From the NCBI GenBank assembly GCA_964016885.1, contig OZ024740.1, forward strand, positions 154,938,001 to 155,002,000: DNA of 64,000 nucleotides, read 5' to 3'. The position numbers and the translations under genes were made by a program. Below the pieces are notes generated by a model. That model was not told the DNA's origin, ran no database searches, and saw only the letters and a list, made by a program, of their open reading frames with translations. Source of the DNA: Eledone cirrhosa (taxonomy: Eukaryota). Of the stretch, positions 14,375 to 43,867 are shown piece by piece; position 1 is the first letter of the stretch; each line of letters begins with the position of its first letter.

Positions 14375-16580
14375 ATGATGGGTCTTCTGTATGACTGTGT
14401 AGCGCCAAAGATCTCGGTCCAGTGACATTGTCTTGGAGAGGTGTAAGTGTGTGAGGTCGGAATTTATCAAGTCGTCCAGGTTTTTCTGGGTCTGCCTACT
14501 CCGTGGATACCGTCTATTTTTATCGCCCTGCACTTTTTTATACAGCTGTCGTCTTTCATGCGCATCACGTGACCATACCAACGTAGTCTTCTCTTGAGTA
14601 AACAACATCTGATCCCTCTTATTCCTAATTTCTCCCTTAGTTCGTTTATGCTTTGCCGTTCACGTATATTACTATTACACATCCAGCGGAGCTTCCAAGC
14701 TTCGTTTCTCTACAGTCTGCGTATATCCTCTGCACACAATGCCCAGGTCTCACTGCCATGTAACATTGCTGTTCGTATGCAGGCATCATACAGCCTGCCT
14801 TTCATTTTTAGAGAGAACCCTTTAGCGGCCAATAGTGGTATAAGCTCTCTGAACTTTTTCCATCCCGTTCTGACTCTAGCTACTGTACTTTCAGAGCACC
14901 CTCCCCCACTGCTGATTTTGTCACCCAGGTAACGGAAGGTGTCCACTATTTCTATAGTACCATCTGTGCAATGGAATGAGCTAGTATTCTGTGGGCACTT
15001 GCTGCTACTTATTGCACCAGAGCACCGGCCACATATAAAATTTATATTCTTAGTTAGCTTACCTGTGATCCCACTACATCTTTTATGCACCCATACTTTG
15101 CATTTGGGACATAAAATGGAGTTTCTGCCTACTCCTTTCCTACACACTGAGCATGGCCATTTCCCAGATGGGACCGGTGCCCTATTTTCCTTCCTACAAA
15201 CTAGAACTTTAGTCTTAGACAAGTTAACTTTAAGGCCTTTTGATTCTAGGCCATGCTTCCATGTTTGGAATTTCTTCTCTAGTTCAGCCATTGATTCAGC
15301 TATGAGCGTTAGATCATCTGCATATAGGAGTTCCCATGGGCAGCCCGTCTTGAACTCCTCTGTTATAGCCTGAAGGGCAATAATAAATAGTAGGGGGCTA
15401 AGAATGGAGCCCTGATGAACACCAACTTTTACACTAAACTCTTCACTATATTCGTTGTTAATTCTAACCTTGCTGATTGTTTCTTTATACATGGCTTGTA
15501 TTGCTCTCACAAGCCATTCATCAACACCTAGTTTTCTAAGCGCCCACCAGATAATGGAGCGGGGGACTCTGCCAAAGGCTTTCTCCAAGTCAACAAAAGC
15601 TAAGTATAAGGGTTTACTTTTAGCTAGGTACTTCTCTTGTAGTTGTCGTACAATGAAAAGAGCGTCTGTGGTACTTTTACCTGACACAAACCCGAACTGC
15701 ATTTCATCTAGATCAATTCGTTCTCTGATTAGTTGCGCTATTACTTTTTCTGTGACCTTCATGACCTGGTCGATTAATTTAATGCCTCTATAGTTACCCC
15801 TATCAAGAGCATCTCCTTTACCCTTGTAGCAGTTAATGATGATGCTGCTACGCCAGTCCTTCAGAACGGCCCCATTCTGTATGACTTGGTTTACTATCCG
15901 GGTGACCATAGTGTGTCCCACCATTCCAGATGCTTTCAGTATTTCAGCAACTATTTCCGAAGGCCCGGCCGCCTTCATATCTTTGATTGCCTTACTTATT
16001 ATACTACCTTCAACTCGCACTGCTGGTCCCTCTATTGGATCAATGTGGGGGAGACTGTCTTTCTCCCATTTATTCTCCTCATTTAGTAGCCTTTCGTAGT
16101 GACACTTCCAAGCTACCTTCTTATCAGCGTCAGTGATGGCAAGTACACCATCATCATTACGGACACACTTCTCCCCAACAATATCACGGTTTTCCTTGAC
16201 ACATTGCCTAGCAATCCTGAACACCTTACGTTTTTGGTCCTCGCGTTGTAGAACATGCTTGAACTTTCTTTCCTCTGCTTCCCTTCTTGCGAAGTACACT
16301 TGTCTCCTAGCTTCCCTCCTGGCCACTTGATAGTCTTCTCTACTTCCCCCATCCTGCCATACTTTCCAAGCCTGCTTTTTGGCCTTAATTGACTCCTCCA
16401 CCTTACTATTCCATCACCACGTTACTCTCCTCCTGCCTATAGGCCTGCTCCAGCCACAAACTTCATCTGCCGCCTTCAGCAGGTTAGCTTTCAGAAATTC
16501 CCACTGTTCCTCTATATTGTACGACTCTAATTGCTCTTCCTTACTGACAAGTAATATGCTTTTAAATTTATTACTGAAAA
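14375..16580 (-). mobile_element. RTE-clade LINE, 5'-truncated; RT with inserted PHD finger
   Basis: ORF 14710-16401: NYRGIKL, QFGF, FVDLEKAF, GVHQGSILSPLLF, LLYADD, C4HC3 finger, FRYLG; C-terminus RRLRWYGHVMR...GRPRKTW. Confidence 0.92.
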
Positions 16581-18379: not shown

Positions 18380-19324
18380 TCAAGGATCAATTTCCCCCTC
18401 GTCCCTCTGCATATGAAAGTCTGCTGTCCAGGTCGGTGGTCTACGACTTCGTTGCGATCTTCGTAGTATTGGGGCAGAGCTCTGGGTTTCCACCTCATCT
18501 TGCGTTTCCTCTTCCTCGGAGTCCGTCGACACAGTGATTCTTCTTACATCCAGGACATGACGTGGTACCCCGTCCACGGACACATTGTTCTTTGAATTTA
18601 CGGCCGTCACCGTTCCCCTTCCCCATTGAGATGTGCAACGTGCATCTGGGGGCTTAACCCAGACTTCTTCGCCCACCTGCACGAATGCACTCTCTCTCCC
18701 CACTAGCCATTGTGGCACCGGTTCCTCGACCTGTCCAACCCGAGGGGACATATTGTACCAGAACACTGCCTCCATTGGTGAGATATGGCCCCGCTCCGCC
18801 ATTGCCTTGATCGTCCGGTGGTGTTGCTCCACGATTCCATTCCCGCTCGGCCTGTGCGCCGCTCTGAAGAAACGGTCCACCTTCCATCCATCGAGCATCT
18901 CCCTCAGTGCCTCCGAGCAGAACGCTGCGCTGTTGTCCATCAGCAGTTCATCCACAGGGCCCCGCTCCAAGAACACCTCTCTCAATGTCCGCACGATTTC
19001 CTCGACCGTTCCAGTCTTCATCTCCCTCCATATCGCCATTCGACCTGGTCCACAGTCGACCATCGAGAGGTACGTTCCATGCCGGTAGTGCATCACATCC
19101 ACCGCTAATCGCTTCCAGTCGCGATCCACCGGGAGGCTTCCCGTTTCGTGTACACCCGGGGCGGGATCAATGGACTGACATCGGACGCAGCCTCTAACTA
19201 CCCCCCGAACACTGTGTCTGCTAACGTCCGAGTCGATTCTCCTGGCTAGGAACAGACTCCTATCCACCCCCATGTGGTGCATGTCATGCAACCCCTTCAG
19301 GTCTAACTCGGTCAGCCGACACAC
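18380..19324 (-). CDS. Gypsy integrase (HHCC + DDE), separated from RNase H by a lesion
   Basis: H...HMG...CVRC; LAVDV; MDNSAAF; GNGIVEQHHRTIK. Confidence 0.88.
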   Translation of the reverse strand: MCRLTELDLKGLHDMHHMGVDRSLFLARRIDSDVSRHSVRGVVRGCVRCQSIDPAPGVHETGSLPVDRDWKRLAVDVMHYRHGTYLSMVDCGPGRMAIWREMKTGTVEEIVRTLREVFLERGPVDELLMDNSAAFCSEALREMLDGWKVDRFFRAAHRPSGNGIVEQHHRTIKAMAERGHISPMEAVFWYNMSPRVGQVEEPVPQWLVGRESAFVQVGEEVWVKPPDARCTSQWGRGTVTAVNSKNNVSVDGVPRHVLDVRRITVSTDSEEEETQDEVETQSSAPILRRSQRSRRPPTWTADFHMQRDEGEIDP

Positions 19325-19341
19325 GGCAGCTATCTCATCCT

Positions 19342-20978
19342 CTACCTCCTCCGGCGCACTCTCTTCTCACTGGTGAGCACTGATCTTACCCATCCGAGTA
19401 CAGTAGCCGAGTCGGTGCGTATCTCGATGGTGCGCAGCCCCCACCGCAGGGCGAGGTTCACCCCTCTCAACACCGCGTCCAGCTCGGCCACATTGATGTG
19501 GCTGCAGTCGTCCTTCTTTCTAAGCCAGGCTGCATCCTCGACTTCAACACCTCCTATCTCCAACGTGACACCCAGCGCTATGCTGCTGGCATCGCACCAT
19601 ACAGTCCCGCTCTGTGATTTGGTAACGTACCAGCGTCCCCGCACTGGGTCGTCGGCCTTCACCCTCTCCATGATCTCCTGCATCATGGCCACCGTTCTCT
19701 CTCCCACTCTGTCACCCCTCCCGCTCGTCTCTTGACATAGCTGCATGCCGTCCGGAGCCACCCAGCGATCGGGTAGTGACCCACCAGCTTTCCACACACC
19801 GAGAAAAGCTCCCGCCTATTCATACTTGGGCCCAGTTCCGGAACTTCGTTTCCCCTCTGGAACACCAAAACGCCCGTCTTATCTCGCCGTAGCCTAAGTC
19901 CCAGCGCGGCTCCTCCCTCCAATGTTTCTGATGGCTTCGCAGTCAGTCCATACCTCCGCAAATGGCTCGTGACCTCCGCCATCGACACCACCGACTCGTC
20001 CACTAGGATGTCGTCAATATAGGAGTTAGTAGCCCTCTTTATCTTGTCGGCCCTCCCCAGAGCGGTCTTGAGGACCGCCGCCATGATCTTCGGTGCGGAG
20101 CTCAGCCCGAAACCGAGCCTGGTCAGGCAATATGTCCGGCCCTTATACCTGACCAGCTGATACCGCCAGAGCTTCTCATCTATATGCAACTGCAAGTAAG
20201 CCGACTTTAGATCCACGATCGCTGAACCCCCCATCATGCGTCTCCACTCACGCAGGGTTTCCCCACAGACATCCGTGACCTCGCCACCCGTGTGGCATGA
20301 CACGTGCTCGTTCAGCTCCCGATAGTCCAGCACCGGCCTCACCTTGCTCTTCGTGGGTTGCACCACCGCCATCAACGGCAATACTCCGCACTTCACCTCC
20401 TCCTTCCAGGGAAGCAGTATGCCCTCTTCGATCCATCTCTCTACTTCTCGCTCGAACTCGCTCCTAGCGTTTCCCTTCAATGTGTGTTGATAGCAGCCCA
20501 CTTTGGTCTTCAGTGTTGGTGGTTCTCCCATCCAGTACCACTCAACAACCCATCGCTGCCCATCAAACACGGCCTTGAAGTCTTTGTCCTGTACAGTGTA
20601 AGCGGGGTATTCCTCCTCGTGGGCCTTCTGGTTCTCATGACGTGCACTCACAGCGCATACCGATGCAGCGGCGCCGAACGACACACAGACATTGTTCACC
20701 GTGACGCCCCCTAGACGGCCAATCGCGTCCATGCCCATAACCACGCCGATCCCATCCACCACACTGTCTACCACGATGGCAGAAAGCCTTATCGTCCTTC
20801 CCCGTACCGCTATTTCCATCTCGCTGCGACCTCGGCATTCAATTTTCCTGCCGTCGACTGCCCTTACGCTGCTCTTCCCTCCCCACCTTTGCACCACCCA
20901 CGCAGTCACCAGTGTCGTCGTACAGCCCGTATCCACGAGGGCTCGCTGTGGCTTCCCCTTCACGAAAACGTCCACCAC
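19342..20978 (-). CDS. Gypsy pol: aspartic protease, RT, RNase H (frameshift near 19710)
   Basis: LVDTG; VRPVLDYRELN; DLKSAYLQ; LGFGLSSAP; YIDDIL; WCDAS; HINVAELDAV; TDS. Confidence 0.9.
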
Positions 20979-20989
20979 GGGCAGCGCCG

Positions 20990-21751
20990 CTACTCGTAAG
21001 GGGCAACTACCGGCGCAGTAGTTCCCCTTGGATCGTTTCCCTGGTCGCAGTTAGTAGCGATGTGGCCTGGTCGCTTACACCGGTAGCAAATTATCTCCGG
21101 CTTCGACTCTCTACAGTCTCTAGCCATATGCGGGCCCTGGCACCTAAAACAGCGCCCCCTAAACTCACGCGGACGGCCGCGTGCCGAGGTTGCCTCCCTT
21201 TCACCATTTCGCTGCCAGGTGTCCTGAGCCTCCGTAGTCGCTATCGCCGCAACACTCTTTTTGGCATCTTCCGCTATGATCCGGGCTTGTTCCACCAGTG
21301 AACGCATTTCCATCTCTTTATACCCCGGGACTTGCTGCAGTTTCACCGCTATGTCGTCCGGAAATCCATTGATGAACGCCAACCGCACCGTGCGTTCGCA
21401 TTCCGCCTGGTAACCGGCCAACATAGCCAACCGCCTTATTTCCGCTGCGAAAATGTCGACGCGCTCACCATTCCACCTGATTCTCGCCAGCTTAGCAAAA
21501 GCCGCCAACGGTCCTTCAGCGAATGCATCCATCAGACGCCTCTCAATCTTCTGCACATCTCTTTGGCTGTGCTCGTCCAACTCAAGGAAGAGTACCAGCG
21601 CGTCGCCCTCGAGGTACAATGCCATAAGGCCGGCCACGTCTTCTATCTTCTGCAAGCTTGCGACTAGCCGAACCTTCCGCAGCCAAGCGACAACATCACC
21701 TTCCCCGGTGAATGCCCTGATAGCTTCGTTCATCTGTAGTCTTGTCGCCAT
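20990..21751 (-). CDS. gag: Gag with two CCHC zinc knuckles
   Basis: CFRCQGPHMARDC and CYRCKRPGHIATNC. Confidence 0.9.
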   Translation of the reverse strand: MATRLQMNEAIRAFTGEGDVVAWLRKVRLVASLQKIEDVAGLMALYLEGDALVLFLELDEHSQRDVQKIERRLMDAFAEGPLAAFAKLARIRWNGERVDIFAAEIRRLAMLAGYQAECERTVRLAFINGFPDDIAVKLQQVPGYKEMEMRSLVEQARIIAEDAKKSVAAIATTEAQDTWQRNGEREATSARGRPREFRGRCFRCQGPHMARDCRESKPEIICYRCKRPGHIATNCDQGNDPRGTTAPVVAPYE

Positions 21752-21823
21752 CTTCTGATTTGTTTTGCGGCGAGTGTTTTCTTTTTTTTTTTTTTTTTTT
21801 TTTTTTCAGTCGCCGAAATAGCT

Positions 21824-23655: not shown

Positions 23656-23932
23656 CTTTATCCTATATAACGACCAGTTCACGTGTAGGTCATGTTTACG
23701 GCCCCACTCGATCTTTCACTAGCTGGCTGAAGGCAATGTATTTACCTGCTATGGGACTATATGTCCTATATAAGGGAAAATGCTTTCTGAAGAGCCGATC
23801 TTTCCATTGGAAGTCCCTTGGATTTCAAATCTCTTGTGAGGCGAAACCGTCGGTAAAAGCAATATGGATAGGTAATTGTATTTTGATTTTATTTTGAAAG
23901 ATTGTTTAAATTTTGCTTGTTCCACTCATCTC

Positions 23933-23935
<3 letters not shown>

Positions 23936-24008
<73 letters not shown>
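23936..24008. repeat. (TA)n microsatellite, left flank of the PLE
   Basis: Direct reading. Confidence 0.95.
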
Positions 24009-24012
<4 letters not shown>

Positions 24013-24163
24013 ATACTTTGGGAGGGTCATGTTGCCAATAAGAAACACACGCACCAGTTGCTTTCACTTCAATTTAATTTAATATATATTTATAAATTTA
24101 CAAATTTATAAATTTCTGGTTGGTTGGTTGGTTCCACAACCAGATAGTTGTTTATATATATAT

Positions 24164-24208
24164 AGTCATAGTTCTTTCGTCACACACTCTGTGACCTCTT
24201 CAGTGACT
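24164..24208 (-). ncRNA. Minimal type I hammerhead ribozyme in the inverted pLTR
   Basis: Reverse complement of 25567-25611. Confidence 0.75.
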
Positions 24209-24488
24209 GGGGATTTCTTTCTTCGTTTCTGTGCCTTTCCTTTCTTCTATCCTACGCCATTTTGTTTGTGTGTGGGTTGCGTGCTCAGTTTGCGCATGCG
24301 CCACATCCGGGTGTCTGTGTGTGTTTGTGTTCATTTTTCTATTTTTCTATTTATATTTGTTTGTTTATTTATTTATTTATTGTTGGTTGGTTGTTTGTTC
24401 TATGTGTGTGTGTGTTTTCATTTTGTCTTGTGTGTGTTTTCAATTGTAAGTTGTTTGTTCTATGTGTGTGTGTGTTTTCATTTTGTCC

Positions 24489-25294
24489 TTAATTGTAAGT
24501 TGTGATGTTGCTGTTCCACTCATATTTTCTATTTAATTTTGGTTTTAATTCTTTTATGCTTACTGCCTCTGTAATTTGCCTAAACATTGCGTCTTTCTTG
24601 TGTGTGGATTCTATTTTTATTTCTATGCTCTCTAATTTACCCCTGTGTTCTATCTTAGCATGTTGGTAGAGCACAGATGATTCTTTACTATCTTGGAGGT
24701 CTCGCCAGTGTTCATTTATTCGTTCCCCTATACTACGAGCTGTCTCACCTATGTACACTATATTTTTGTTTCTACATTGTCCCTCAGTACATCTTATGCT
24801 ATATACTACATTTCTAGTTTTACAGTTAATATGGGGGCTTATTTTACAGGTTATACATTTCTTATCTATACATGAGGGTCTTTGGAACGGGTATGTCTTG
24901 CTAATAAGTGTTTTTACGGAGGTACCAGGTCTTTCTACTATCTTAATATTGAGATTATGTTTCTTTAGGGCCCTTCTAAATTTGTAGGCTAGTTCGCCTC
25001 TAGGGGTTGTATTGATGAACATTACACTCTGGTATTTATTGCTATCATACCATGAGTTTATTCTATTGGCCTTGTTCTTAGTTCTTTCTATTCTATTCCA
25101 AAATTTGCTCCTATACAAGGGGCAGGTCCCATTTATGTCATTATTTACCATTTTTTCCCATTTGGTTCTGGCTCCTTTATACACTCTGATTCTATCTCTC
25201 TGATTGTAGCCAGAGAACTGCATACGGTGGATGAAGTGTTGTATGTGTCTCTCTAGTTCTTCGGGGTTGCACATGCGGGACACATTTCTCATCA
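24489..25294 (-). pseudogene. Inverted, 5'-truncated copy of the PLE thumb-end/GIY-YIG region
   Basis: Translation identical to the C-terminus of the 25721-29551 ORF from MRNVSRMC onward. Confidence 0.92.
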
Positions 25295-25566
25295 TGAAAA
25301 CACACACACACATAGAACAAACAACTTACAATTGAAAACACACACAAGACAAAATGAAAACACACACACACATAGAACAAACAACCAACCAACAATAAAT
25401 AAATAAATAAACAAACAAATATAAATAGAAAAATAGAAAAATGAACACAAACACACACAGACACCCGGATGTGGCGCATGCGCAAACTGAGCACGCAACC
25501 CACACACAAACAAAATGGCGTAGGATAGAAGAAAGGAAAGGCACAGAAACGAAGAAAGAAATCCCC

Positions 25567-25611
25567 AGTCACTGAAGAGGTCACAGAGTGTGTGACGAAA
25601 GAACTATGACT
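25567..25611 (+). ncRNA. Minimal type I hammerhead ribozyme in the 5' pLTR
   Basis: AGTCA-CTGAAGA-G-GTCAC-loop-GTGAC-GAAA-GAAC-TA-TGACT: core CUGANGA/GAAA, stems I and II paired, vestigial stem III. Confidence 0.78.
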
Positions 25612-25744
25612 ATATATATATAAACAACTATCTGGTTGTGGAACCAACCAACCAACCAGAAATTTATAAATTTGTAAATTTATAAATATATATTAAATTA
25701 AATTGAAGTGAAAGCAACTGGTGCGTGTGTTTCTTATTGGCAAC

Positions 25745-28700
25745 ATGACCCTCCCAAAGTATAACAATATCGGTTTCAACACACGATTTCAGATAAAGAA
25801 TCTTGCTAAACAAATTCAGAAACGAAATATCGTAAGCCTTAGCCAGGCTAACAAGATACTGAAAACCACCATGTTCTGTTGTCTACGAAAAACCATAACA
25901 TCTCGACAACTACACTTCATAAAACTGTGCACCACTTCTAGAATCTACACCAACACCATCAATACCGACGTTAGAAGATTACAACTCACCAAAAAACAAG
26001 CAGATAGGCTAAAACGAACTTTAATTCTAAACATAAAAAAGAAGATCTATAGAGAATTAAGTCATCAAGAAAAACTAAAGCGTAACCTAATAGATGAAAT
26101 ATCTAAAATCACCACACCAGCAGAAAAACTAACATTTATAAGCCTTATACGCCCCGAAGAACAGTACATTACTCAAGAATGTAATAAGCACTTTAACAGA
26201 AAATTAAAGTGGCTTAAACAGGCAAAGCTAAATCGGGATACTATAGAGTATACCAATAGATATCCCGACAAAATTGACGGTATCAACATGGCCGACACCT
26301 CATTATCTGAAGAGTTCAACAATGAAAATACCAACATTTATGGAAACACGAAAATAGATAATAATGAAATGTCTGTGTTACGTCTGCCACCCAAATTTGC
26401 GACATTCAAGAAGGTAAATATGATTAGTTGTCTGTCAGAAATAGAAAAATCATTTACGAAACTACGCTGGAGCATCAAAAACAAAAACAAAAGCAACAAT
26501 ATACGCACACACATATACAACACACATCCCAACAACAACAGACACACAGACACAAACAACAATAACAACAACAATAGCAACATACCCAGATACAATACCA
26601 ACAATAGCAACATACCCAGATACAACAGACACGCAGACACAAACAACAATAACAACACACACGGAGACAACAATAACAACAACACACACATCAACAACAA
26701 CAACAACAGCAACATACCCAGATACAACAACAACAGACACGCAAACACAAACAACAATAACAACACACACAACAACGATAACACACACACACACGGAGAC
26801 AACAACACACATCAACAACAACACACATCAACAACAACAACACACACACATTCAATGCCTCTCACCACCACTACAATCTTAACAAACACACAGACACAGA
26901 AAACAAGTAATGACAGTAGCACAGAAATCAGAGAAATAAGAGAAAGTAATAGGATTAAAAGGAGTAGGGAGACTAAGGACAAAGAGAATAACCAAGACGA
27001 ACACACAGACACACAAAATAGGGTAGATAACAACATTGAGCCAGTGGAAAGAGACAGGAGTAATTATGAGAGACATAGAAACAACCATGAAGCTGAGGCT
27101 GCTGCTGTTGGTGGAAATAGAAACAACACAACTAACAATAGCACTAGTACACATAAAGCAGCAGCCTGGAACTCTCCGTTTTATAACCCCTCCGATAAAT
27201 CATTCGACCTACGACGAGTCCACGCCACGACTTTGCCATTTAACAAACGCACGCAGTTGCCGTCGCAGGTCGATGAACAAACAGAAGCACAATTTAGTAT
27301 AGCTAAATCCGAACTTAGAAATATTATAGAACAGTATAGCAAGAAGCATAATAGAATAGAGGCCCAGCAACTGGGAGAAGAATCTGCAAATGGCTTGCGT
27401 AAGCTCATGCAGCGCTCGCGTAATGGAGAGATAGCATGCTTTCCAACAGACAAGTCTGGCAGAATGTCGGTTGACAGCCTGCCAAACTACATCCAGGCAA
27501 TGCAACCCCACATCACTAACACAAGAGAGGTAACACCACAGGAGCATGAGGATAGAGAAAAAACCCTCAATGCCCATATGGTGATGTGGACAAATATAAT
27601 GCAGCCCAACAAAAGGACTGCCAACAACTTCCAGGCCTGGAACAATGACGTGCCGGCGTTGTATGGGCTTCGAAAAGACCATAAAACGGGCTGGGACCCT
27701 GTCGCGGGACCACCAACACGGCCAGTCTGTGGGGCTAACATTGCTAGTAACTACAGACTGTCCTACTTCCTCTCCCTGATCATACGCCCCATCATTGAGA
27801 TGTCCCCAGATGTGTGTGACAGCACGGAGGACCTCCTCAGCAGAATCGACGCGGGTAACCGATCTGGGGACCTAACAAACTGCATAATAGGCAGTATGGA
27901 TGTTGTGTCCCTGTATCCATCTATTGACGTGGATTTTGCTGTGGAGAAATGCGTCGAAATGATCAGCGAGAGCAAGGTTGAGTTCCGTGGGATTGATACC
28001 AGTGAGCTGGGACTTCTACTTAAGTTTACCCATAGTAATAGTTACCTAGACACTTATGACCTTAGCAACCTGTGCCCTACAAGACCAGCAAGAGGCAGAC
28101 CACCTACCATTACCTCAATGGCCAAGAAAACCCACACAGATAGATGGAACGGGTGGACCAGAGCCATACGGACACCCGAAAACCACGATGAACTGAAGAA
28201 AATGATTGCACATGCGGTAGGGGCCAGCATAAAATTAACCCTTAAGGAACATATGTTCAAATTTAATGGTAAAACATATGCCCAAGAAGAAGGAGCAGCC
28301 ATTGGTGTTAGCATTGCAGGCGACATAGCTAACTTGTTCATGGTATGGTGGGACAGTAGACTTAAACAAAAACTTAAAGAACAATTAGAAGACAGCTTAA
28401 CCCTGATAATGTACTCCCGCTACGTAGATGATATAAACATCGTAGTTAAGACACCCCCACTAAAGAACAGTCAGGAACCTGAGAAAAACACAATGGAAAG
28501 CATCCAGCAAATAGCAAACTCCATCCACCAGAGCATTAGAGTTACTATAGACTACCCAAGTAGACACCCCAACCATCGATTACCTGTACTAGACACAGAG
28601 CTCTGGTTAGATACTATTAACAACCAAAAACAAATCCTCCATTCCCATTATGCCAAACCCATGACTTCCAAACATCTGATCCACCGAAACTCGGCCATTT

Positions 28701-29551
28701 CGGACCATACCAAAATCAACATACTGATTGCGGATTTGATACGGGTGATGAGAAATGTGTCCCGCATGTGCAACCCCGAAGAACTAGAGAGACACATACA
28801 ACACTTCATCCACCGTATGCAGTTCTCTGGCTACAATCAGAGAGATAGAATCAGAGTGTATAAAGGAGCCAGAACCAAATGGGAAAAAATGGTAAATAAT
28901 GACATAAATGGGACCTGCCCCTTGTATAGGAGCAAATTTTGGAATAGAATAGAAAGAACTAAGAACAAGGCCAATAGAATAAACTCATGGTATGATAGCA
29001 ATAAATACCAGAGTGTAATGTTCATCAATACAACCCCTAGAGGCGAACTAGCCTACAAATTTAGAAGGGCCCTAAAGAAACATAATCTCAATATTAAGAT
29101 AGTAGAAAGACCTGGTACCTCCGTAAAAACACTTATTAGCAAGACATACCCGTTCCAAAGACCCTCATGTATAGATAAGAAATGTATAACCTGTAAAATA
29201 AGCCCCCATATTAACTGTAAAACTAGAAATGTAGTATATAGCATAAGATGTACTGAGGGACAATGTAGAAACAAAAATATAGTGTACATAGGTGAGACAG
29301 CTCGTAGTATAGGGGAACGAATAAATGAACACTGGCGAGACCTCCAAGATAGTAAAGAATCATCTGTGCTCTACCAACATGCTAAGATAGAACACAGGGG
29401 TAAATTAGAGAGCATAGAAATAAAAATAGAATCCACACACAAGAAAGACGCAATGTTTAGGCAAATTACAGAGGCAGTAAGCATAAAAGAATTAAAACCA
29501 AAATTAAATAGAAAATATGAGTGGAACAGCAACATCACAACTTACAATTAA
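25745..29551 (+). CDS. PLE polyprotein: RT + GIY-YIG endonuclease (probably Naiad-type), uninterrupted
   Basis: Open from GTG 25721, first ATG 25745; LRLPPKF, PTDKSG, LYGLRKDHK, PTRPV, SMDVVSLYPSI, GAAIG, RYVDDI, LPVLD, Cx4CxxC...C, VVY..RC....C.....YIGET, conserved H/H, EA...LN. Confidence 0.95.
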   Translation: MTLPKYNNIGFNTRFQIKNLAKQIQKRNIVSLSQANKILKTTMFCCLRKTITSRQLHFIKLCTTSRIYTNTINTDVRRLQLTKKQADRLKRTLILNIKKKIYRELSHQEKLKRNLIDEISKITTPAEKLTFISLIRPEEQYITQECNKHFNRKLKWLKQAKLNRDTIEYTNRYPDKIDGINMADTSLSEEFNNENTNIYGNTKIDNNEMSVLRLPPKFATFKKVNMISCLSEIEKSFTKLRWSIKNKNKSNNIRTHIYNTHPNNNRHTDTNNNNNNNSNIPRYNTNNSNIPRYNRHADTNNNNNTHGDNNNNNTHINNNNNSNIPRYNNNRHANTNNNNNTHNNDNTHTHGDNNTHQQQHTSTTTTHTHSMPLTTTTILTNTQTQKTSNDSSTEIREIRESNRIKRSRETKDKENNQDEHTDTQNRVDNNIEPVERDRSNYERHRNNHEAEAAAVGGNRNNTTNNSTSTHKAAAWNSPFYNPSDKSFDLRRVHATTLPFNKRTQLPSQVDEQTEAQFSIAKSELRNIIEQYSKKHNRIEAQQLGEESANGLRKLMQRSRNGEIACFPTDKSGRMSVDSLPNYIQAMQPHITNTREVTPQEHEDREKTLNAHMVMWTNIMQPNKRTANNFQAWNNDVPALYGLRKDHKTGWDPVAGPPTRPVCGANIASNYRLSYFLSLIIRPIIEMSPDVCDSTEDLLSRIDAGNRSGDLTNCIIGSMDVVSLYPSIDVDFAVEKCVEMISESKVEFRGIDTSELGLLLKFTHSNSYLDTYDLSNLCPTRPARGRPPTITSMAKKTHTDRWNGWTRAIRTPENHDELKKMIAHAVGASIKLTLKEHMFKFNGKTYAQEEGAAIGVSIAGDIANLFMVWWDSRLKQKLKEQLEDSLTLIMYSRYVDDINIVVKTPPLKNSQEPEKNTMESIQQIANSIHQSIRVTIDYPSRHPNHRLPVLDTELWLDTINNQKQILHSHYAKPMTSKHLIHRNSAISDHTKINILIADLIRVMRNVSRMCNPEELERHIQHFIHRMQFSGYNQRDRIRVYKGARTKWEKMVNNDINGTCPLYRSKFWNRIERTKNKANRINSWYDSNKYQSVMFINTTPRGELAYKFRRALKKHNLNIKIVERPGTSVKTLISKTYPFQRPSCIDKKCITCKISPHINCKTRNVVYSIRCTEGQCRNKNIVYIGETARSIGERINEHWRDLQDSKESSVLYQHAKIEHRGKLESIEIKIESTHKKDAMFRQITEAVSIKELKPKLNRKYEWNSNITTYN

Positions 29552-29831
29552 GGACAAAATGAAAACACACACACACATAGAACAAACAACTTACAATTGA
29601 AAACACACACAAGACAAAATGAAAACACACACACACATAGAACAAACAACCAACCAACAATAAATAAATAAATAAACAAACAAATATAAATAGAAAAATA
29701 GAAAAATGAACACAAACACACACAGACACCCGGATGTGGCGCATGCGCAAACTGAGCACGCAACCCACACACAAACAAAATGGCGTAGGATAGAAGAAAG
29801 GAAAGGCACAGAAACGAAGAAAGAAATCCCC

Positions 29832-29876
29832 AGTCACTGAAGAGGTCACAGAGTGTGTGACGAAAGAACTATGACT
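29832..29876 (+). ncRNA. Minimal type I hammerhead ribozyme in the 3' pLTR
   Basis: Identical to 25567-25611. Confidence 0.78.
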
Positions 29877-30267
29877 ATATATATATAAACAACTATCTGG
29901 TTGTGGAACCAACCAACCAACCAGAAATTTATAAATTTGTAAATTTATAAATATATATTAAATTAAATTGAAGTGAAAGCAACTGGTGCGTGTGTTTCTT
30001 ATTGGCAACATGACCCTCCCAAAGTATAACAATATCGGTTTCAACACACGATTTCAGATAAAGAATCTTGCTAAACAAATTCAGAAACGAAATATATATA
30101 TATATATATATATATAAGAATTAAAATACTAGAGTGTGTTGGAGTTAAACACCCTCTTCATATTATAGAAATGACAGTATAAAATATAGCTCAATGTAAT
30201 TAAACAGAGCCGAAGAATTATAAAAAATAAACCAAAGAAGCCTTCAATACATCAAAAGTCTTTATTA

Positions 30268-30305
30268 GCCAACAATGTTTCGTCCTATTAAGGACTCATC
30301 AGGGC
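30268..30305 (-). ncRNA. Minimal hammerhead ribozyme of a second PLE family
   Basis: GCC-CTGATGA-GTCC-TTAATA-GGAC-GAAA-CATTGTT-GGC. Confidence 0.72.
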
Positions 30306-32267
30306 AAGTAAAGCTACAAGAAGCACTATCGGCCAATACAAGCCAAAAACTCAGAAGAATATGGAGTATACATCTATTAAAGCTTAGGAAAGATATCAAG
30401 GAAAAGTTGGCTAAGATTAAGAGTGAGCAGTTAAAAACATAGATATAGACCAAATAGCAAGGAAGTGATTAACATGTTGAACCCACATTGCAAAAACTTG
30501 AAACACAAATGGTAATATAATGCGAGAATTACAGTACGATATAGAATATAATATAATATAATAGATGGTGATAATAAAAAGCTTAATATATGTATATATA
30601 TATATATATTAGAAAGATCGAGTATCGAAAAATCGGCGCACGAGTTCACGATAAACAATATTCGAAATGAGCGGCAGAGGGCTCAATAATTCAGATGAAT
30701 CAGAGCTATAACTATCGTTAAAATACCGTCACATATAGAACAAGTCTACAATCAACCATACGATAAAAAATCGATAATAGAAGATTCGGGACAAACAGAT
30801 AAAAAATATCAATAAAACAATACATCAATAATTTAAATGAATGTAAAATCATACCCGGACCCACTAGAAAGGTGTTAAATCTAGCTTCTTGGGTTTCTGT
30901 AAATCCTTTCTATACACATTAGTACAAACTAACACTTATTAAGTATTTAAATATATATATATATATATTGTTTACAGTATAATATAATAAAGATAAAAAT
31001 AAGAATAAAGATAAAAATAAAAATAAAATATAATATATAATTCCCTGTCAGTGTGCATAAACAATATTAAAACATTATAATAACATTATAATAACAATAT
31101 TATAATATATTGGCGTCAAAAGATATACAAAATTACATCATATATATAATTCAAGGTTAACAAATAGTATAAAGTTTTACACAGGGTAAGAAAAAAATCA
31201 TATAGAATTGTGTTGAAAAAATATCTATACCATTGCAACAAATACACGGAGGTCAAGTCATTTTACATTGGCATAAATATTACCAAAATATCACAAAATA
31301 TTACAAAATATAACAGTACAGTACTTCAAATAACAGACATATATTAAAATCTATAATACGATTACATAAAAATGATATGATATAACAACGTTAATATCAA
31401 ATAGCAAACAGAGTCTAAGGAAATGCTTAATATATATATTTACGTGGTTGACATACACAGACATATATTAATGAAATTACATGATTCCGACAGACAGCGT
31501 GTGGTAGTAAAAAAAAAAAAATAAAATAAACCGAAGATCGAAAAACAAAAACAAGTATATTTACTTAGGTGTCACAAGCGGTTAAGTAAAAGAAAAAAAA
31601 AAAAAATAGAAATGTAAACCGGAGAATTGACTAGAAAACCTTTTTAAATTAATTAATATTAAAAGTATTTAAAATACATATTTAGTCACTTCAAAATTGG
31701 CTAGAGTTTAAGTCATCAAAAACGTATAAGTTTAAGATATTTCAATAAAATTATCAAGAATAGAGTAAAATATGCTCCGTTCAGTCGAATGACGTTATCA
31801 AATAAAAGGACTCTAAATAGAACTATGGTAGACCAATGGGAACAGAAAGAAGAGAGGTTATGGAGGATAGGAAGGAGCATAAAAGTAAAATCAATATATT
31901 ATATAATATCATAATATCATAAAAGGAGCATAAAGGTGAAATTTATATATAGTATAATAGAAGGGGCGGATATTAAGTGTGTAGAGGAAGAGGTACATTA
32001 GTTGAATGAGACTCCAAACAAAGTATTTAATAAGATATAAACTCATAAGGTGTTAGTAGTGAAACTATAATAATGCTTAAGAAGATAGATAGGATATGGT
32101 AGCCAAAAGACTATGGAAACTAAAATCGAAAAGCTGTAAAAAACTAATAATAATAAAGATGATGGTAATCAAAATGAACCTAAAAAAAAAAGATAAGGAA
32201 ATATAGCAGCTAATGGATACGATTTAAACTACCAGAACTTTTAGGTCTATAATAGAAGAAAGAATTA

Positions 32268-32863: not shown

Positions 32864-32871
<8 letters not shown>

Positions 32872-33113
32872 TATAAGCTATCGCCGTATTTTGACTAAAG
32901 AAATTAAAGAAATTATTTAGCCTGATAGTGGAGTTAAGAACCCTCGGAGAAATGGAAAAAGATGAGTATTGACGTATTTTTCCATTTCTCCGAGGGTTCT
33001 TAACCCCACTATCAGGCTAAATAATTTCTTTAATTTCTTTAGTCAAAATACAGCGATAGCTTACATTTCTAATAATTTCAAACCAACTCGCTGTTTCGAA
33101 AATATTCTTACTT

Positions 33114-33114
<1 letters not shown>
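32864..33114. mobile_element. Palindromic element within (TA)n, ~95-bp arms
   Basis: 32864-32960 is the near-perfect reverse complement of 32976-33073; right end matches the TIR of 12208-12448. Confidence 0.8.
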
Positions 33115-33487: not shown

Positions 33488-35240
33488 ATCATTATCATCA
33501 TCATCACCGTTTTACGTCCGTTCTTCCATGCTAGCATGGGTTAGACGGGTTGACCATGCCTTGCTCATACAGGAGCTGATTCTGGCTTGATTTCTACAGC
33601 TGTATGCCCTTCCTAACACCAACCTCATTTACAGTGAGTGCTGGGTGCTTTTTTCCGTGGCGCCTACACGTCCACTTTGCAGTGGGAGGGTGTGGGGAAT
33701 ATTGTCTATATGCTTCAGCTTGTACCCATGGGAGGTCGGGTACTCTGTATTACTGCGTGACGCCAGAGGTCACGGTCGTATGTCATCGCCTTTGAGCGGT
33801 GTAATTGGGTAAGGTCGGCTTTTATCACCTCATCCCAGGTCTTCTTGGGTCTCCCGACTCCGCGACTTCCATTGACTTCTAGTGCTCTGCACCTTTTTAT
33901 GCAGCTGTCATCCTTCATACGCATCACATGTCCATACCAACGTAACCGCCTCTCCTGCACACAGCATTTGATTCCTCTTATGCTCAGTCTCTCTCGCAAT
34001 TCATTTATGCTTTGCCGTTAGCGTATATTACTATTACACATCCATCGGAGCATGCAGGCTTCGTTTCTTTCTAATCTACGTAAGTCTTCCACCTTCAGCA
34101 CCCAGGTCTCACTACCATGTAACATTGCTGTTCGTATACACGCATCATACAGTCTGCCTTTCATTTTGAGGGAGAAGCCTTTTGCAGCTAGCAGTGGCAG
34201 TAGTTCCCTGAACTTCTTCCATCCTGTTCTTACCCTAGTTATTGTACTTTCTGAACACCCACCTGCGCTGCTAATTCGGTCACCTAGGTAGCAGAAGCTG
34301 TCTACTGTTTCTACAGAGCCCTCCCAGAGATTGGTGGTGCTTGTTTCCTGTGGCTGTTTGCTGCTTGCTGTCCCAGCACAGCTGCTACATGTGAAGCCTA
34401 CATTCTTAATTAAGCTTCCTGAGATCCCGCTACATCTCTTGTGTACCAATTGTTTGCATTTGGGGCAGAGAATGGAGTTCCTACCTACACCTTTCCTACA
34501 TACTGAGCAAGGCCATTTCTCTGAGGGGATCTGGGTTTTGTTTTCTCGTCTACTTACAAGGACCTTAGTCTTTGTCATGTTGACTTTGAGACCCTTTCTT
34601 TCTAGTCCCTGCTTCCAAGTTTGGAATTTCTTCTCTAGTTCTACCATAGATTCAGCTATAAGTGCGAGGTCATCTGCATACAGGAGTTCCCATGGGCATC
34701 CAGTCTTAAACTCCTTCGTTATTGCCTGCAGGACTATGATGAACAGGAGAGGGCTAAGAACAGAACCCTGGTGGACACCAACCTGTACGCTAAATTCCTT
34801 GCTATACTCATTGCTAATCCTAACTTTGCTGACTGCTCCCCTATACATGGCTTGTACAGCTTTCACAAGCCATTCATCTACTCCTAGTTTTCTAAGAGCC
34901 CACCAGATTACAGCACGTGGAACTCTGTCAAAGGCTTTCTCGAGATCGACGAATTCCAGGTAGAGTGGCTTACTTTTAGCTAGGTACTTTTCCTGTAACT
35001 GTCTCACAAGAAAGAGAGCATCAATGGTGCCTCTTCCTGGTACAAACCCAAATTGCATCTCATCTAGTTTCACCCGGTCCCTAATCAACTGTGCTATAAC
35101 TCTTTCTGTTACTTTCATGACCTGGTCCATCAGCTTTATACCTCTATAGTTTCCTCTATCTAGTGCATCACCTTTACCTTTGTAGCAGTTGACAATGATG
35201 CTACTGCACCAATCTTTTGGTATGACACCTTCTAGTATTA
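33488..35240 (-). mobile_element. RTE LINE, second subfamily, 5'-truncated, RT + PHD, complete 3' end with (GAT)n tail
   Basis: ORFs 34018-35457 and 33715-33999; same motifs as 14375-16580. Confidence 0.92.
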
Positions 35241-35419
35241 TATATTTTGGTATGACACCTTCTAGTATTATATATTTTATTATACATATTTCAAAGGTAC
35301 AATGGTGTTTAAGTACGTTTTCATCAGATAAAATATAAGATTTGATATGCGACATACCGCTACGGTTTTGATTATTCAATTCCAATAGTGCCACTATTGG
35401 AATTGAATAATCAAACTGC

Positions 35420-35591
35420 GGAGGATCCTGGAAGAATCCTTCCAGGAGTGCATGCAAGCGTGGCAGAAAAGGATGGAAAAGTGCATTAGACTCCGGGGGG
35501 ATTACTTTGAAGGAGAAAACTCTTAGTGTGAAGTTTGGGTTTGAAATAAATCTTTTATGACATCAGTCCTGGAACTTTTCTGACACACCTC

Positions 35592-39419: not shown

Positions 39420-42400
39420 CCAAAGCCTCTGGATAAACAACATTCTTGGTTTTGCCCTGTGGTGCAACAATAAAGAGACAATCAGGGTTCCCAACCCTTG
39501 TTGTGCCAACATAGAGTTGACCATGTGAAAAGACAGGATCTGCCAGATTCAACCCAACGACTTTCAATGATTACCCTTGAGATTTATTAATGGTCATGGC
39601 AAAACTGAGCCTGATCGGAAATTGAAGTCTTTGAAATTCAAATGGCAAATCAGTTGGCTTCAGAGGTATTCTGGGAATGAAACAATTGTCACTAGCAAAT
39701 TTTCCTGACATGATTGCAACTTCTAGAACATTGGACATCATATTTTTGATGATGAGTCTTGTGCCATTACAAAGTTTTGGAGGATCCAGATTGCGAAGTA
39801 GCATAACCGATTCTCCAAGCTTCAGTATAAGGTTGTGTGGAGGAATTCCTGCTCGTTCAAGACTGTTCAAAAATTCAGTTGGATAGTTTACAACCTGGTT
39901 TTAAGAAGTGATTGTGTCAACTGATTTGTAGGATATTTTCTCTCCCGGTAAAATCTCCAGCAGCCTTCTGTTGATTTCTTTCACAGCAACATTTTTAGGT
40001 GCTAAGATTGCTCGTTCACAGAGACATTTCAGATCACATTGCCTGGTCTGAATGTTTGGAAACACTCTGGCAATCAGTTCTTGTTCTGTGTCAATGATAT
40101 GGCCAAATGACAACTGAATATGGTCATTGGAGTCTTTTTCAAGAAGTCCATTTCCCAATTTAAGTAGTTGGATGGCAAACTCACTGACACCTTCGTCACC
40201 AGTTAAGTGCACTCGCGTGTTGGTTGTAAGGCTCAGCAGCTGAAAGCGGGGCCAGAGATAGGATGTTTTCAGACAGGCATTGACCTGATCAGCTCGAGTC
40301 CCTTGAAGAATTACAGACAGAGTTTGTCTGAAATCACCAGCAAGAACCATTGTCACTCCTCCCATTATGCAACTATTTTCTCTCAGATCCATTATCATCC
40401 GGTCCAAAGCTTCAATTGCTCCTTTATGGCTCATAGTAGCTTCATCCCAAATTATCATCTTGCATGTTTGCAGAAGCTTGGCCTTGAGTGAGTTCTTCTT
40501 GATGTTGTAAAAAGATTGTTCATGCTGTGTGAGATCTATGGGCAGCTTAAACATGGAGTGTGCAGTTCTTCCTCCATCCAGAAGTGTTGCTGTAATGCCA
40601 CTTGAAGCCACAGCAAGGGCAATATGTTGCTTTTGGCGAACTTTTGCAAGCAGGAGGTTTATGAGGAATGTCTTGCCTGTGCCAGCAGGAGCATCGATGA
40701 AGAAAAGTCCTCCCCTGTCATTTTGAATGTTTTCAATGATGTTGTGGTAGGCGTATTTCTGGTCATCCATCAATCAAGGTTCATTTTCATCCACAAACTT
40801 ACGCAATGCTTGAATATCGTAGTTTGTCTCCTGAAAAATGTCTTGTGCTACCTCCATTTCTTCATCTGGCTCTGGCATCCCTCAGTTAGCTAATGTGCTA
40901 TTCATTGCCTGAATTCGATGGGACAGGTCACAGAGAGCTTGATTGTAAATCTTGGGGGTATATTCCATATACATATTGCTATATACATATTGTCTTCGGG
41001 CTAGGTGTAGATAGTCGTCCGACATATTGTTTTTGTACTCCTGCCAGAGTAGATGAGCTTCATCAATTCCACATGCTATGAGCATAATAGCAAATAATTG
41101 TCTTATTTGACTGGCTACTTGAGTGATTGCTGCTTCTTTTAGGTACTTCTTCCAGTGTCCATTGTCATGCAGGAGTCCATGCTGTTTAGATGCTTCTTGG
41201 TATGTTGCGCACTCCCTTCCTCTGAAGCACCTAAGATCCTCAAATGACGTTGGTCCTCGAACAGTATGCAGAAGTAGCTGTAAATAAAAACACTCTCTGT
41301 TGTTGGGATGGACATTGTAAACACGCCCAATAACATCACTTGACTTGACTTCATGACCTACTACTAAATGACCCTGCTTTCTTCGATTCCAGGTCTTGCA
41401 ATTGGTCCAGGTGTAGTATGTTGGGGCTTCAGCATATAGGAGGGATCGAGCAAATTCATCATTCTGGCAGAGTTTAAAGAAAGCAGTTAGTGTAGTATCA
41501 TGTGATGCTTGTGCCAACTGATGAGCAGTGATCTCAGTGAAGTACACTCTCTGTCCATTTTCCAGATGGACTGAGAGGTTGACCACTGTTGGGTGGTGTT
41601 GGTGGATATCAAATCGAAAGATTCGCCAGATAGCTTCATTGCTGGAGATGTATCAACCTGTTTGATACCGTTTGACCTCATCCAGCCAACCATCATTGAG
41701 TTCTTTGTCAGTAATAAAGGTAGCCATGTCTCTTCCCTTGTTGATATATTTTGTGACATATAGGATTGCCTTGACAGAGCTGCAATACTCAACATTGATA
41801 TGAGCTTTTAAAAGTTTACACAACAATTTTTTGTGTGGGACAACCCACTGATTGTTTATGGTCAGCTCCTCTCCTCGAACTGTTAGGCTTGCAGTATTGC
41901 CTCCATGTTCTGGTCTACGCCTACGATAAAGGGGGTATCCATTATTGTCAGTCCGAGTTTCCCGAATAAAAGCTCTAGGATAATGTTTGCTGCATTTTTT
42001 ATCTTTCATGCAGGGAGAGGCTGGATTGATGACTCCACATGGACCATGAATGAGTTTGGACTTGATGGTTTCAAAGAGCTCTGGATCACCACTTTTATCA
42101 GGCAACTCTGCTGAAATGATCTTATCAACATCAATTGGTCTTATCTTCTCCTTGCATCAGATTAGTGTGTGAGAGTGAAGAAGACCTCTCTTCTGCCACT
42201 CAATAGTGGTCATCCAAGCACTAATCTCACCAAAGATTCTTCCTTCTTTTAGGAGCCAGATGAGTTGTTTTTTTGCTTTTCATGGGAAACCCGAACAATG
42301 AGGTAATGTCGATCCTTTGGTTTTTGATTTTGAAATAATTCATTTGATATTTCTGACCAGTTTGAATTGCATGTAAATGTAATGAAGAGATCTGGCCGAC

Positions 42401-43842
42401 CAAATTTTCTGACATAGGCCATTGCATCTTGCGTACGTTCATGCATGTAACGTGGTCCTCCCGTGAAGCTTGATGGTAGTATGACTGGCTGGCCAATATT
42501 TCTTGGGTCAACATCAGAATTGATGGCATCTCTAAGGTGGATGAAGTTATCTGCCCTCAACTTAGTTTGATTCCTTCGCAGAAAACCCAATCTTTCTGTT
42601 TCAATTTTGGCATACATGTCCACCATGAACTGGCTGGTTACTTCTTTGAATCACAGAACTTGGTTGAAGGGATCACGTACCATGAAATGATAAGCATAGA
42701 ATTCTTTGCAGCTGATTGATCGGCCAGTTTCTTGTCCCGTTCCAGGGCTGATATGCCGTAGCTGAAAATGATATCCATCTTGACCATTCCAAAAGATGAG
42801 TGGAAATTGGGGGGAATCATAGTCTCTATGAGCTTCACAAATTCGCTCCAAATGTCCACTTTGTTTTTGCAAAACAATGTCACGTCGTTCATGCTGTTCA
42901 TCAACCATTATGATTGTAACTTCATCAGTGACAGGTGCATTGAATCTGCATTCATGTTCTGAAGCTGGGCGTTTGTCTGCCCTAATGATGATTTTACGAT
43001 CTTTGGTGTTGTTCATATGCTCCAGTGCATATTTAAATACACTGGCGTACATGTGATGTTGGTGAAGCATTTCTTGTAACTTTATGACTATGTAGAATTG
43101 CAATCCACCATGGACATTGGTATATCTTTGTTGTGCCTGTGTTTCATTTCTACCCATGAAGTAAACCTGCACAAATTTGTGAGGGTCCTGTGAAAGTGGC
43201 AGAAGGCCACCCATTAAGTGGTAACACTGTCCCTGAATTTTATAAGTTGTACAGAATCTAAAGTCAGTCACATTCCTGTCAGCCCCAAAAGATGTCATTT
43301 GAAAGGCAGAATTATATTTTATGATGTATTTATTGAAGTGTCGTGCTTCTGGTGTATGCTGAATAAGCAGATTCTTCAGAAATTCAGTAGGTTCTTGTAT
43401 TGTCTTAAGGCTCACTTTGCCTTTTGAGCAGCATAGACTTGGTGTTTCTGCTGCCCACTTCTTGGCACCACAATACTGGCAGCATTTGTTCATTTTCCCA
43501 ATGTTGATTTGTGGATTACTGCTGTAGTCCTTTTGGGGGTCATAAGAAAAAGCACCCATCAACCAGTTCATTTTACTTGTGGCTTGTTCTCCTGCTCGAG
43601 TAGAATGATGTGCTTGATTAGCATTTCGTCTGATTTGCTGCTGTTCTTTAATTTGTTGTTCTCGTGTAGCAGCAGTCCTTTGTTCCCTTTCATCCAAACA
43701 ATGTGCGTGTGCTAAAGCTGTTTGGGCTCTGTTAGCAGCTAGACGGACATGCCAAACTTCTTCACTTTCTTCAGATCGCTGTGTTTTCTTTCTCTTAGCC
43801 TCTGAAGATGACCTTCCATGATCTGGAACGTTTTCTAGGCAT
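39420..43842 (-). pseudogene. Helitron RepHel (HUH Rep + Pif1-family helicase), multiple frameshifts and stops
   Basis: FITFTCN, EWQKRGLLHSH, YVTKYINKG, VHLENGQ, DAPAGTGKT, IIWDEATM, GDFRQ, LCNGTRL, FAMTINKSQG, FSHGQLYV. Confidence 0.95.
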
Positions 43843-43867
43843 TTGAAGTGATATTATTACACAGGTG

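Follow-up and report, generated by a model that had tools for sequence, protein, structure and literature searches.

Penelope-like retrotransposons of the Neptune and Nematis types have been described by Craig et al. (2021, PMC8557442), who name the origin of their tandem and inverted structure, and their choice of microsatellites, as unsolved; our account of this and of the other papers cited draws on part of each text. We have analysed an element of this kind in a window of 64,000 nucleotides (nt) of the Eledone cirrhosa genome (GCA_964016885.1, contig OZ024740.1, positions 154,938,001-155,002,000, forward strand; positions below are those of the window), together with its relatives elsewhere in the assembly. 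Insertions of this family have fixed 3' ends with TA flanks, pair an end at one site with an end at a second, lie, in nine marked targets, between target duplications of 10-12 base pairs (bp) and, where edited, carry edit patterns common to both of their arms. We consider it probable that the two 3' ends of one staggered cut prime on the same sense RNA, one at each site, giving two inverted arms at fixed TA ends.

With the elements of Craig et al. ours shares an open reading frame (ORF) that contains reverse transcriptase and GIY-YIG domains, a CX2-5CxxC linker, a CCHH motif, a tandem of pseudo-long terminal repeats (pseudo-LTRs), an inverted 5'-truncated copy, a tail that is often one-ended, a hammerhead in the pseudo-LTR and a bias towards microsatellites. 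The tail is 60 nt here as against 30-40 there, and PMC8557442 treats the one-ended tail qualitatively; the text examined holds no pairing rule, no duplication length for TA targets and no evidence for a single RNA. In vitro, PAc, the Poseidon of Anolis carolinensis, cuts and extends both strands and starts at both ends of its tail (Frangieh et al. 2024, PMC11167929); according to that work, the steps after initiation remain unvalidated. As in our family, two internal starts bound a tail inside the beginning of the ORF, both strands are cut and extended, AT-rich sites are preferred for cutting and a dimer is predicted. The PAc start is not homologous to the cut DNA and showed no difference between strands, whereas here the TAT at both sites matches the TA target and each insertion has one of each site.

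Twin and dual priming have both been described for LINE-1 (L1, long interspersed nuclear element 1; Meyer et al. 2010, PMC2837659). In L1 twin priming, as here, a second nick primes internally on the RNA and two inverted fragments come to lie between target duplications. There it is a variant pathway with a start at poly(A), a free internal site and an internal deletion; here, in contrast, copying begins at two fixed internal starts, arms that overlap on the template are usual, and two-armed insertions are common. The Penelope elements of Adineta vaga (Arkhipova et al. 2013, PMC3846280) resemble ours in their head-to-head inverted pseudo-LTRs, the tail on one of these, Asn-rich inserts in the ORF and duplications of 8-10 bp, close to the 10-12 bp here. 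A 2026 retrozyme preprint (10.64898/2026.07.22.740005) does not treat priming in the part available to us.

The element in the window consists of a (TA)n tract, an inverted arm (24005-25294), a direct arm (25294-30095) and an (AT)n tract (Table 1), the flanking TA arrays spanning 23936-24008 and 30092-30116. The inverted arm is an exact copy of part of the direct arm and stops at the equivalent of 25770; the direct arm, a partial tandem, stops at the equivalent of 25830. These stops, which we call site 1 and site 2, lie 60 nt apart within the first codons of the ORF, and the template reads AATATCG at both. An earlier note on this DNA, made from its letters alone, had placed the ends at 25770 and 25830, 60 nt apart and each running into TA, and our repeat comparison agrees with it exactly. 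The complete identity of the arms suggests that the insertion is young. Because the direct arm (4,802 nt) is longer than one unit (4,265 nt), its template must have been a multimer or a circle.

The ORF is intact and encodes 1,268 amino acids (stop-to-stop frame 25712-29551, 1,279 codons). It contains, in order, an Asn-rich insert, a reverse transcriptase (YVDD at 28421), a CX4CxxC linker (29168-29194) and, at the C terminus, a GIY-YIG domain with CCHH. The insert, rich in Asn, Thr and His, lies in frame in the N-terminal part (26470-26850) and resembles the Asn-rich inserts of rotifer Penelope elements (PMC3846280). Against Pfam the whole protein gave no match; RVT_1 was matched with E 2e-4, below the curated cut-off, and GIY-YIG with 23.5 bits against a cut-off of 22.6 when the C-terminal piece was the query. 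The nearest protein-atlas clusters include reverse transcriptase and GIY-YIG sets, and among solved structures the only match was a weak one to a GIY-YIG homing endonuclease (E 0.16). A hammerhead-like core with stems I and II is present in each pseudo-LTR, at 25572-25600 with copies at 29837-29865 (plus strand) and 24175-24203 (minus strand); Rfam did not report this minimal motif, which we regard as a candidate ribozyme. The single ORF with reverse transcriptase followed by GIY-YIG, the pseudo-LTR tandem, the inverted 5' copy, the one-ended tail and the hammerhead motif are together those of endonuclease-bearing (EN+) Penelope-like elements with a C-terminal endonuclease. Its linker and CCHH motif make it Neptune or Nematis by the definitions of PMC8557442. 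Hydra, which has no CCHH, a CxCX5C linker and DKT, is ruled out by the CCHH, the CX4CxxC linker and DKS; Penelope/Poseidon by the presence of a CX2-5CxxC linker; and Naiad/Chlamys by an endonuclease that is C-terminal, not N-terminal. Judged by its sequence, then, the element is a young, intact Penelope-like retrotransposon of the Neptune/Nematis type.

The family is very abundant: the 26-mer that precedes site 1 has 25,674 exact matches in the genome. At site 1, 11,893 exact matches continue into TA and 11,173 read through; at site 2, 14,921 pattern matches, a figure in which some loci count twice, have their end in TA, and 439 copies proceed past the site into the ORF. Our main sample of ends was the first 100 genomic matches to the 26-mer, unselected; these and all other loci sampled, except the edited and off-target sets described below, come from the first 49 Mb of one contig. 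In 99 of the 100 copies the end lies within -7/+1 nt of site 1 or site 2 (52 at 25766-25770, 47 at 25823-25831), and one copy reads through. The end passes straight into at least 6 alternating TA bases in 84 of the 99, and in 89 the flanks are at least half TA. This exceeds what chance would give: ATAT starts at 0.6% of unit positions, and (TA)6+ tracts make up 674 of the 64,000 window bases. Targeting of TA microsatellites and termination at ATAT motifs, both put forward in the earlier note, are thus borne out family-wide. Assembly artefact was rejected as an explanation, identical ends being found on many contigs with distinct flanks. Public sequencing runs compared with the left flank of the element (four; five listed, none with half of the flank's words) gave repeat matches only and no record spanning an empty allele. 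A sister family (L180-L209; 7,801 exact matches) has site 1 in common with ours and two or three alternative ends downstream. Its codons at site 2 differ, yet it ends at a TAT 58 nt or a TA 44 nt after site 1 (about 13 and about 6 of 30 loci, respectively, counted by eye).

How the two ends combine was examined in 76 hand-curated two-armed insertions: the window copy, 41 unselected ones, 13 picked from opposite-strand neighbours, a choice biased towards mixed pairs, and 21 with site 2 as their anchor. Left out were about 15 two-armed loci that were interrupted or only partly retrieved (L050, L052a, L056, L063, L064, L073/74, L101, L109a/b, L114, L115, L120, L124, L127, L133 and L143). An end at site 1 is paired with one at site 2 in 73 of the 76, the rule holding for 40/41 unselected, 12/13 picked and 20/21 site-2-anchored insertions. 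Single-armed copies are also numerous, and TA often lies on either side of them. In 39 of the 73 mixed insertions the site-1 arm extends further 5' and only the site-2 arm has the tail, so that neither arm contains the other; some arms do not overlap on the template at all. At least 90 nt of template are common to the arms in 43 of the 73 pairs, unlike the non-overlapping fragments of twin priming in the L1 sense. Arm length showed no asymmetry (medians 248 and 254 nt, p 0.62). Several minimal insertions recur (L057, L060, L092 and L109), with a site-1 arm of 33-34 nt starting at 25737-25738 and a site-2 arm of 10-21 nt. Among 87 site-2 arms, 11 have their 5' end at 25496-25516, as against 5 in 25430-25495 and 7 in 25517-25600. 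This pile-up (window 25496-25520) lies just before an AARATGGCG motif, which we take to resemble a YY1 site, and the region is a candidate internal promoter and RNA start.

The flanks of the two-armed units record how the target was cut. A duplication is invisible in pure TA, including the window's own target; marked targets reveal it, and they take the place of an empty allele. Nine were available: 3 from the 76 insertions, 4 from the off-target ends at site 2 and 2 from the edited set. The off-target set comprised 19 site-2 ends with non-TA flanks, 6 of which lie no more than 1.5 kb from a site-1 partner. Counted from the first templated base of one arm to that of the other, the duplications are 12, 12, 12, 12, 12, 11, 11, 11 and 10 bp long, so that both ends of the unit derive from one staggered cut. 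Two longer candidates, L036 and L066, lie in degenerate TA and could not be interpreted. The earlier note had envisaged two priming events, one on each strand of a single cut; the nine duplications and the 39 insertions with non-nested arms support this.

Do the two arms copy one RNA molecule? At sites diagnostic of subfamilies the arms of an insertion disagree in 34 of 531 comparisons (6%), against 37% in shuffled pairs and a minimum of 22% in 1,000 shuffles. Two of the mismatches have another source: that of L044 is an alignment artefact caused by an internal deletion, and that of L039 stems from two different pseudo-LTR units within the long arm. A finer marker came from dense A-to-G clusters in both arms of two unselected insertions, L039 (G000:C1:2083233-2090526) and L087. 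These clusters look like adenosine-to-inosine (A-to-I) hyper-editing of the template RNA, with ADAR as the putative enzyme; they are located in the pseudo-LTR, which inverted donors would pair as double-stranded RNA. A pattern fitted to the L039 and L087 edits had 4 genomic matches, all in the arms of those two insertions, and a looser one had 22, representing about nine clearly edited insertions. The patterns were strict and the follow-up ones sought A-to-G only; the two unselected cases lie within the first 20 Mb, against few found elsewhere. Edited copies were L039, L087, L218-L221, L223, L225 and L229-L231, and each pattern is private to one insertion.

Six edited insertions have overlapping arms, and three others have no informative partner. 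In five of the six, a small number, the arms have nearly all edits in common (29/29, 30/30, 30/30, 27 of 29 and 28, and 11 of 13 and 15), whereas the overlap between different insertions has a Jaccard index of 0.10-0.48; an unedited partner arm was found in none of the six. All dense transition clusters in the loci examined are A-to-G in the sense orientation, with an unbiased count of 2 to 0, which indicates a sense RNA as template. The common edits argue that one sense RNA likely templates both arms. Of the marks of L1 twin priming, then, inverted fragments between duplications were found nine times and a single RNA, by indirect evidence, in the five of six just described. The site-1 arm of L039 has its start in an unedited unit further downstream and runs on through the edited one, where the site-2 arm begins, so both sites need not share one unit; later recombination could also have produced this configuration.

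Together these observations suggest the following mechanism. The GIY-YIG nuclease, probably as a dimer, would cut (TA)n to leave 3' overhangs of about 12 nt, and the protein would position the RNA with one primer at either end of the tail. A primer ending in ..ATA-3' would pair with UAU and so set the register, and one terminal pair might suffice. Both complementary DNAs (cDNAs) would be extended towards the 5' end of the RNA, overlapping on the template, either by displacement or one after the other; Penelope-type enzymes are not known to have an RNase H. Both would stop early and be joined head to head by end-joining, mostly without clear microhomology. We also lean, at slightly better than even confidence, towards a broader reading in which twin priming would be the normal Penelope-like pathway: an asymmetric dimer, a 12-nt staggered cut in (TA)n, telomerase-style 3-nt seating on two fixed sites of one sense RNA, and double copying with strand displacement. 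If correct, a single mechanism would explain the tail together with the inverted arms and the bias towards microsatellites, and the molecule-specific barcodes that A-to-I editing by the host had left in the genome would be proof of copying from one RNA.

The role of primer-template homology in this scheme bears on two of the alternatives. None of 30 copies ends at the (TA)3-6 run of the pseudo-LTR and none of 100 listed (of 101) at the third AATAT, at 26098; in five off-target site-2 junctions with a duplication the match is a single A, the target A lying opposite 25827 in all five. A longer TA run and a third AATAT left unused, together with priming on a 1-nt match, argue that homology does not choose the sites, which are the two ends already known for the Penelope tail. 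The strict form of the earlier proposal, in which a primer moves along the RNA and starts at any AT motif that pairs with it, can point to ATAT at both sites and to the sister family's alternative TA/TAT positions 14 nt apart, but it is largely refuted by the counts just given, and the two-armed copy L063 ends at an AT-rich block near 25690; we give it hardly any credence. The usual match is 3 nt (TAT) and likely tunes the register only; two copies in which both arms carry a variant base at 25767 retain the variant, which limits the match to TAT. Hence the AT microhomology of the earlier note fails as a means of site selection and stands, as a likely one, for setting the register. Predicted RNA folds around the sites do not exceed shuffled sequences in stability (25735-25860, z -0.42; 25700-25835, z +0.37), and we propose no hairpin there. 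In favour of a register role, a junction shifted in phase by 2 nt was seen at 16/90 site-2 ends, 1/98 site-1 ends and 0/100 read-through copies, and an out-of-phase one at 1/90 site-2 ends. A template variant was ruled out as the source of the shifted site-2 junction by its absence from the 100 read-through copies and its presence with both tail haplotypes; donors that ended in that junction may have passed it on. Possible but doubtful, in our view, is that the protein fixes the starts without primer pairing, the seamless ATAT junction arising from a cut of fixed phase and the shifted junctions from later slippage. That reading bears on nothing but the pairing step, and twin priming on one RNA could hold alongside it. 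It draws on the off-target insertions that use site 2 with a 1-nt match, on the longer TA matches that are ignored, on the non-homologous start of Poseidon in vitro and on one age test that leaned to slippage. It is opposed by the TAT/TA at the ends of the sister family despite different sequence and codons, by TAT or TA at site 1 of several unrelated families (by eye, duplicates kept), by the terminal A that matches in 5/5 off-target cases, and by shifted junctions in copies with 0 mismatches over 105 nt (4/16).

Two further alternatives concern the template. In dual priming each cut end would copy its own RNA molecule from the same donor, the subunits preferring different sites. It would suit L219, whose arms have different edit patterns, and the lack of a stall at site 1; strand displacement would not be needed for long overlapping arms, and a cis preference would explain subfamily concordance. 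Two RNA molecules would, however, be edited independently, and arm patterns that agree nearly site for site in 5/6 insertions, while differing between insertions, oppose it, so that we judge it improbable. Less credible still is one priming event followed by fold-back or self-priming, possibly on an antisense template as proposed in PMC3846280, with AT microhomology joining the second end or gene conversion making the arms alike afterwards. Common edits would follow from copying or conversion as well, and a few insertions (L036, L042, L129, L135 and L230) are perfect palindromes, both arms having the same starting base. Yet fold-back copying cannot make the 39 of 73 insertions in which neither arm can template the other, a relation that also holds for four of the five shared-edit cases, nor does it sit well with the non-overlapping or non-nested arms of the genomic copies L057, L060, L109, L116 and L119. 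The edits are, moreover, A-to-G in sense, as a sense RNA predicts (only two of these cases being unbiased). Non-nested arms and sense edits argue, for the Eledone family, against the self-priming proposal of PMC3846280.

Several observations nevertheless weigh against priming of both ends on one RNA with a short match. Three of the 76 insertions pair like with like (two with site 2 twice, one with site 1 twice), and one further, unfetched pair among the site-1 matches may be site 1 with site 1. Both arms of L219 are edited but have only 13 of 23 and 22 edits in common (Jaccard 0.41), in keeping with two RNAs or with two units in a single RNA. L230, one of the five edit-sharing cases, is a perfect palindrome that fold-back could explain, and later gene conversion between arms may be a source of common edits. 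Site-2 arms are not piled up at site 1 (4/87; neighbouring bins 0-4) and thus bear no trace of an encounter between two enzymes. Microhomology is absent from most head-to-head junctions: by a noisy method, 17 of 55 overlap and 36 have inserted or unassigned bases. As to the match itself, the start site of Poseidon in vitro is not homologous to the cut DNA (PMC11167929), and the shifted junction could come from later slippage; in one test it was commoner among older copies (p 0.03, with one misaligned and one near-variant row in the data), in a second it was not (p 0.19).

The tail, the two start sites, the inverted arms and the TA bias are already published. Within the partial coverage of our literature search, we found no work that applies twin priming on one RNA to Penelope-like elements or uses edited copies as barcodes; nor did the literature searched contain the pairing rule, the one-RNA barcode or the stagger of about 12 bp, on which the supplements of the cited papers may bear. 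The feature is real and family-wide, belongs to a known class of elements and adds new mechanistic constraints: each site takes one primer, the stagger is about 12 nt, a single sense RNA is copied and the register match is 3 nt. The intact ORF of 1,268 amino acids provides the means of testing these. In edited insertions nature supplies a barcode of single molecules, potentially usable for other retroelements, and alignment of primer and template over a short stretch would tie the mechanism to that of telomerase, the sister group of Penelope-type enzymes.

Table 1. Features of the Penelope-like element and its target in the Eledone cirrhosa window
Feature	Position	Strand	Remark
Left (TA)n target remnant	23936..24004	none	merges with ATAT of site 1
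Inverted 5'-truncated arm, without tail	24005..25294	-	ends (3') at site 1; reverse complement of 28746-30035, exact over 1,290 nt (100%)
Head-to-head junction between arms	25294..25294	none	1-nt overlap
5' partial pseudo-LTR and tail	25294..25830	+	identical to 29559-30095 (537 nt, exact)
Candidate RNA start	25496..25516	+	putative, from pile-up of arm 5' ends in other copies
Minimal hammerhead-like motif	25567..25611	+	core 25572-25600; motif and stem scan
(TA)6 run in pseudo-LTR	25611..25622	+	never an end (0/30 copies)
Single open ORF	25745..29551	+	first ATG 25745
Site 1 (AATAT)	25766..25770	+	first templated base probably 25767
Tail between both sites	25771..25830	+	60 nt, within ORF start
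Site 2 (AATAT)	25826..25830	+	first templated base probably 25827 (25826 off-target)
Third AATAT	26098..26102	+	never an end (0/100 listed of 101)
3' pseudo-LTR and tail	29559..30095	+	direct arm 25294-30095 ends at site 2 (25830 equivalent)
Right (AT)n target remnant	30096..30116	none	

The same stretch of DNA carries traces of other mobile elements. The right flank (30117-30600) contains a further hammerhead-like motif on the minus strand (30248-30318; Rfam score below the gathering cut-off), and given this motif the TA tract may have been struck by an older element. In the left flank (23780-23935) a CTGAAGAG...GAAA stretch, noticed by eye and missed by the stem scan, reaches as far as the same TA tract and is possibly the end of a third such element. 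At 32865-33114, between TA tracts, lies a short two-armed insertion of another family, with arms of 98 nt, a tail of about 40 nt on one arm and a 3-nt match at the short end; in Rfam it gave only sub-threshold microRNA hairpins. Further mobile-element frames, recognised by eye from their translations (18380-21805, 39901-43853, 14710-16413, 34018-35562 and 45586-47668), comprise a minus-strand gag-pol of LTR type, a helicase region resembling that of Helitrons and several reverse transcriptase fragments of LINE type.

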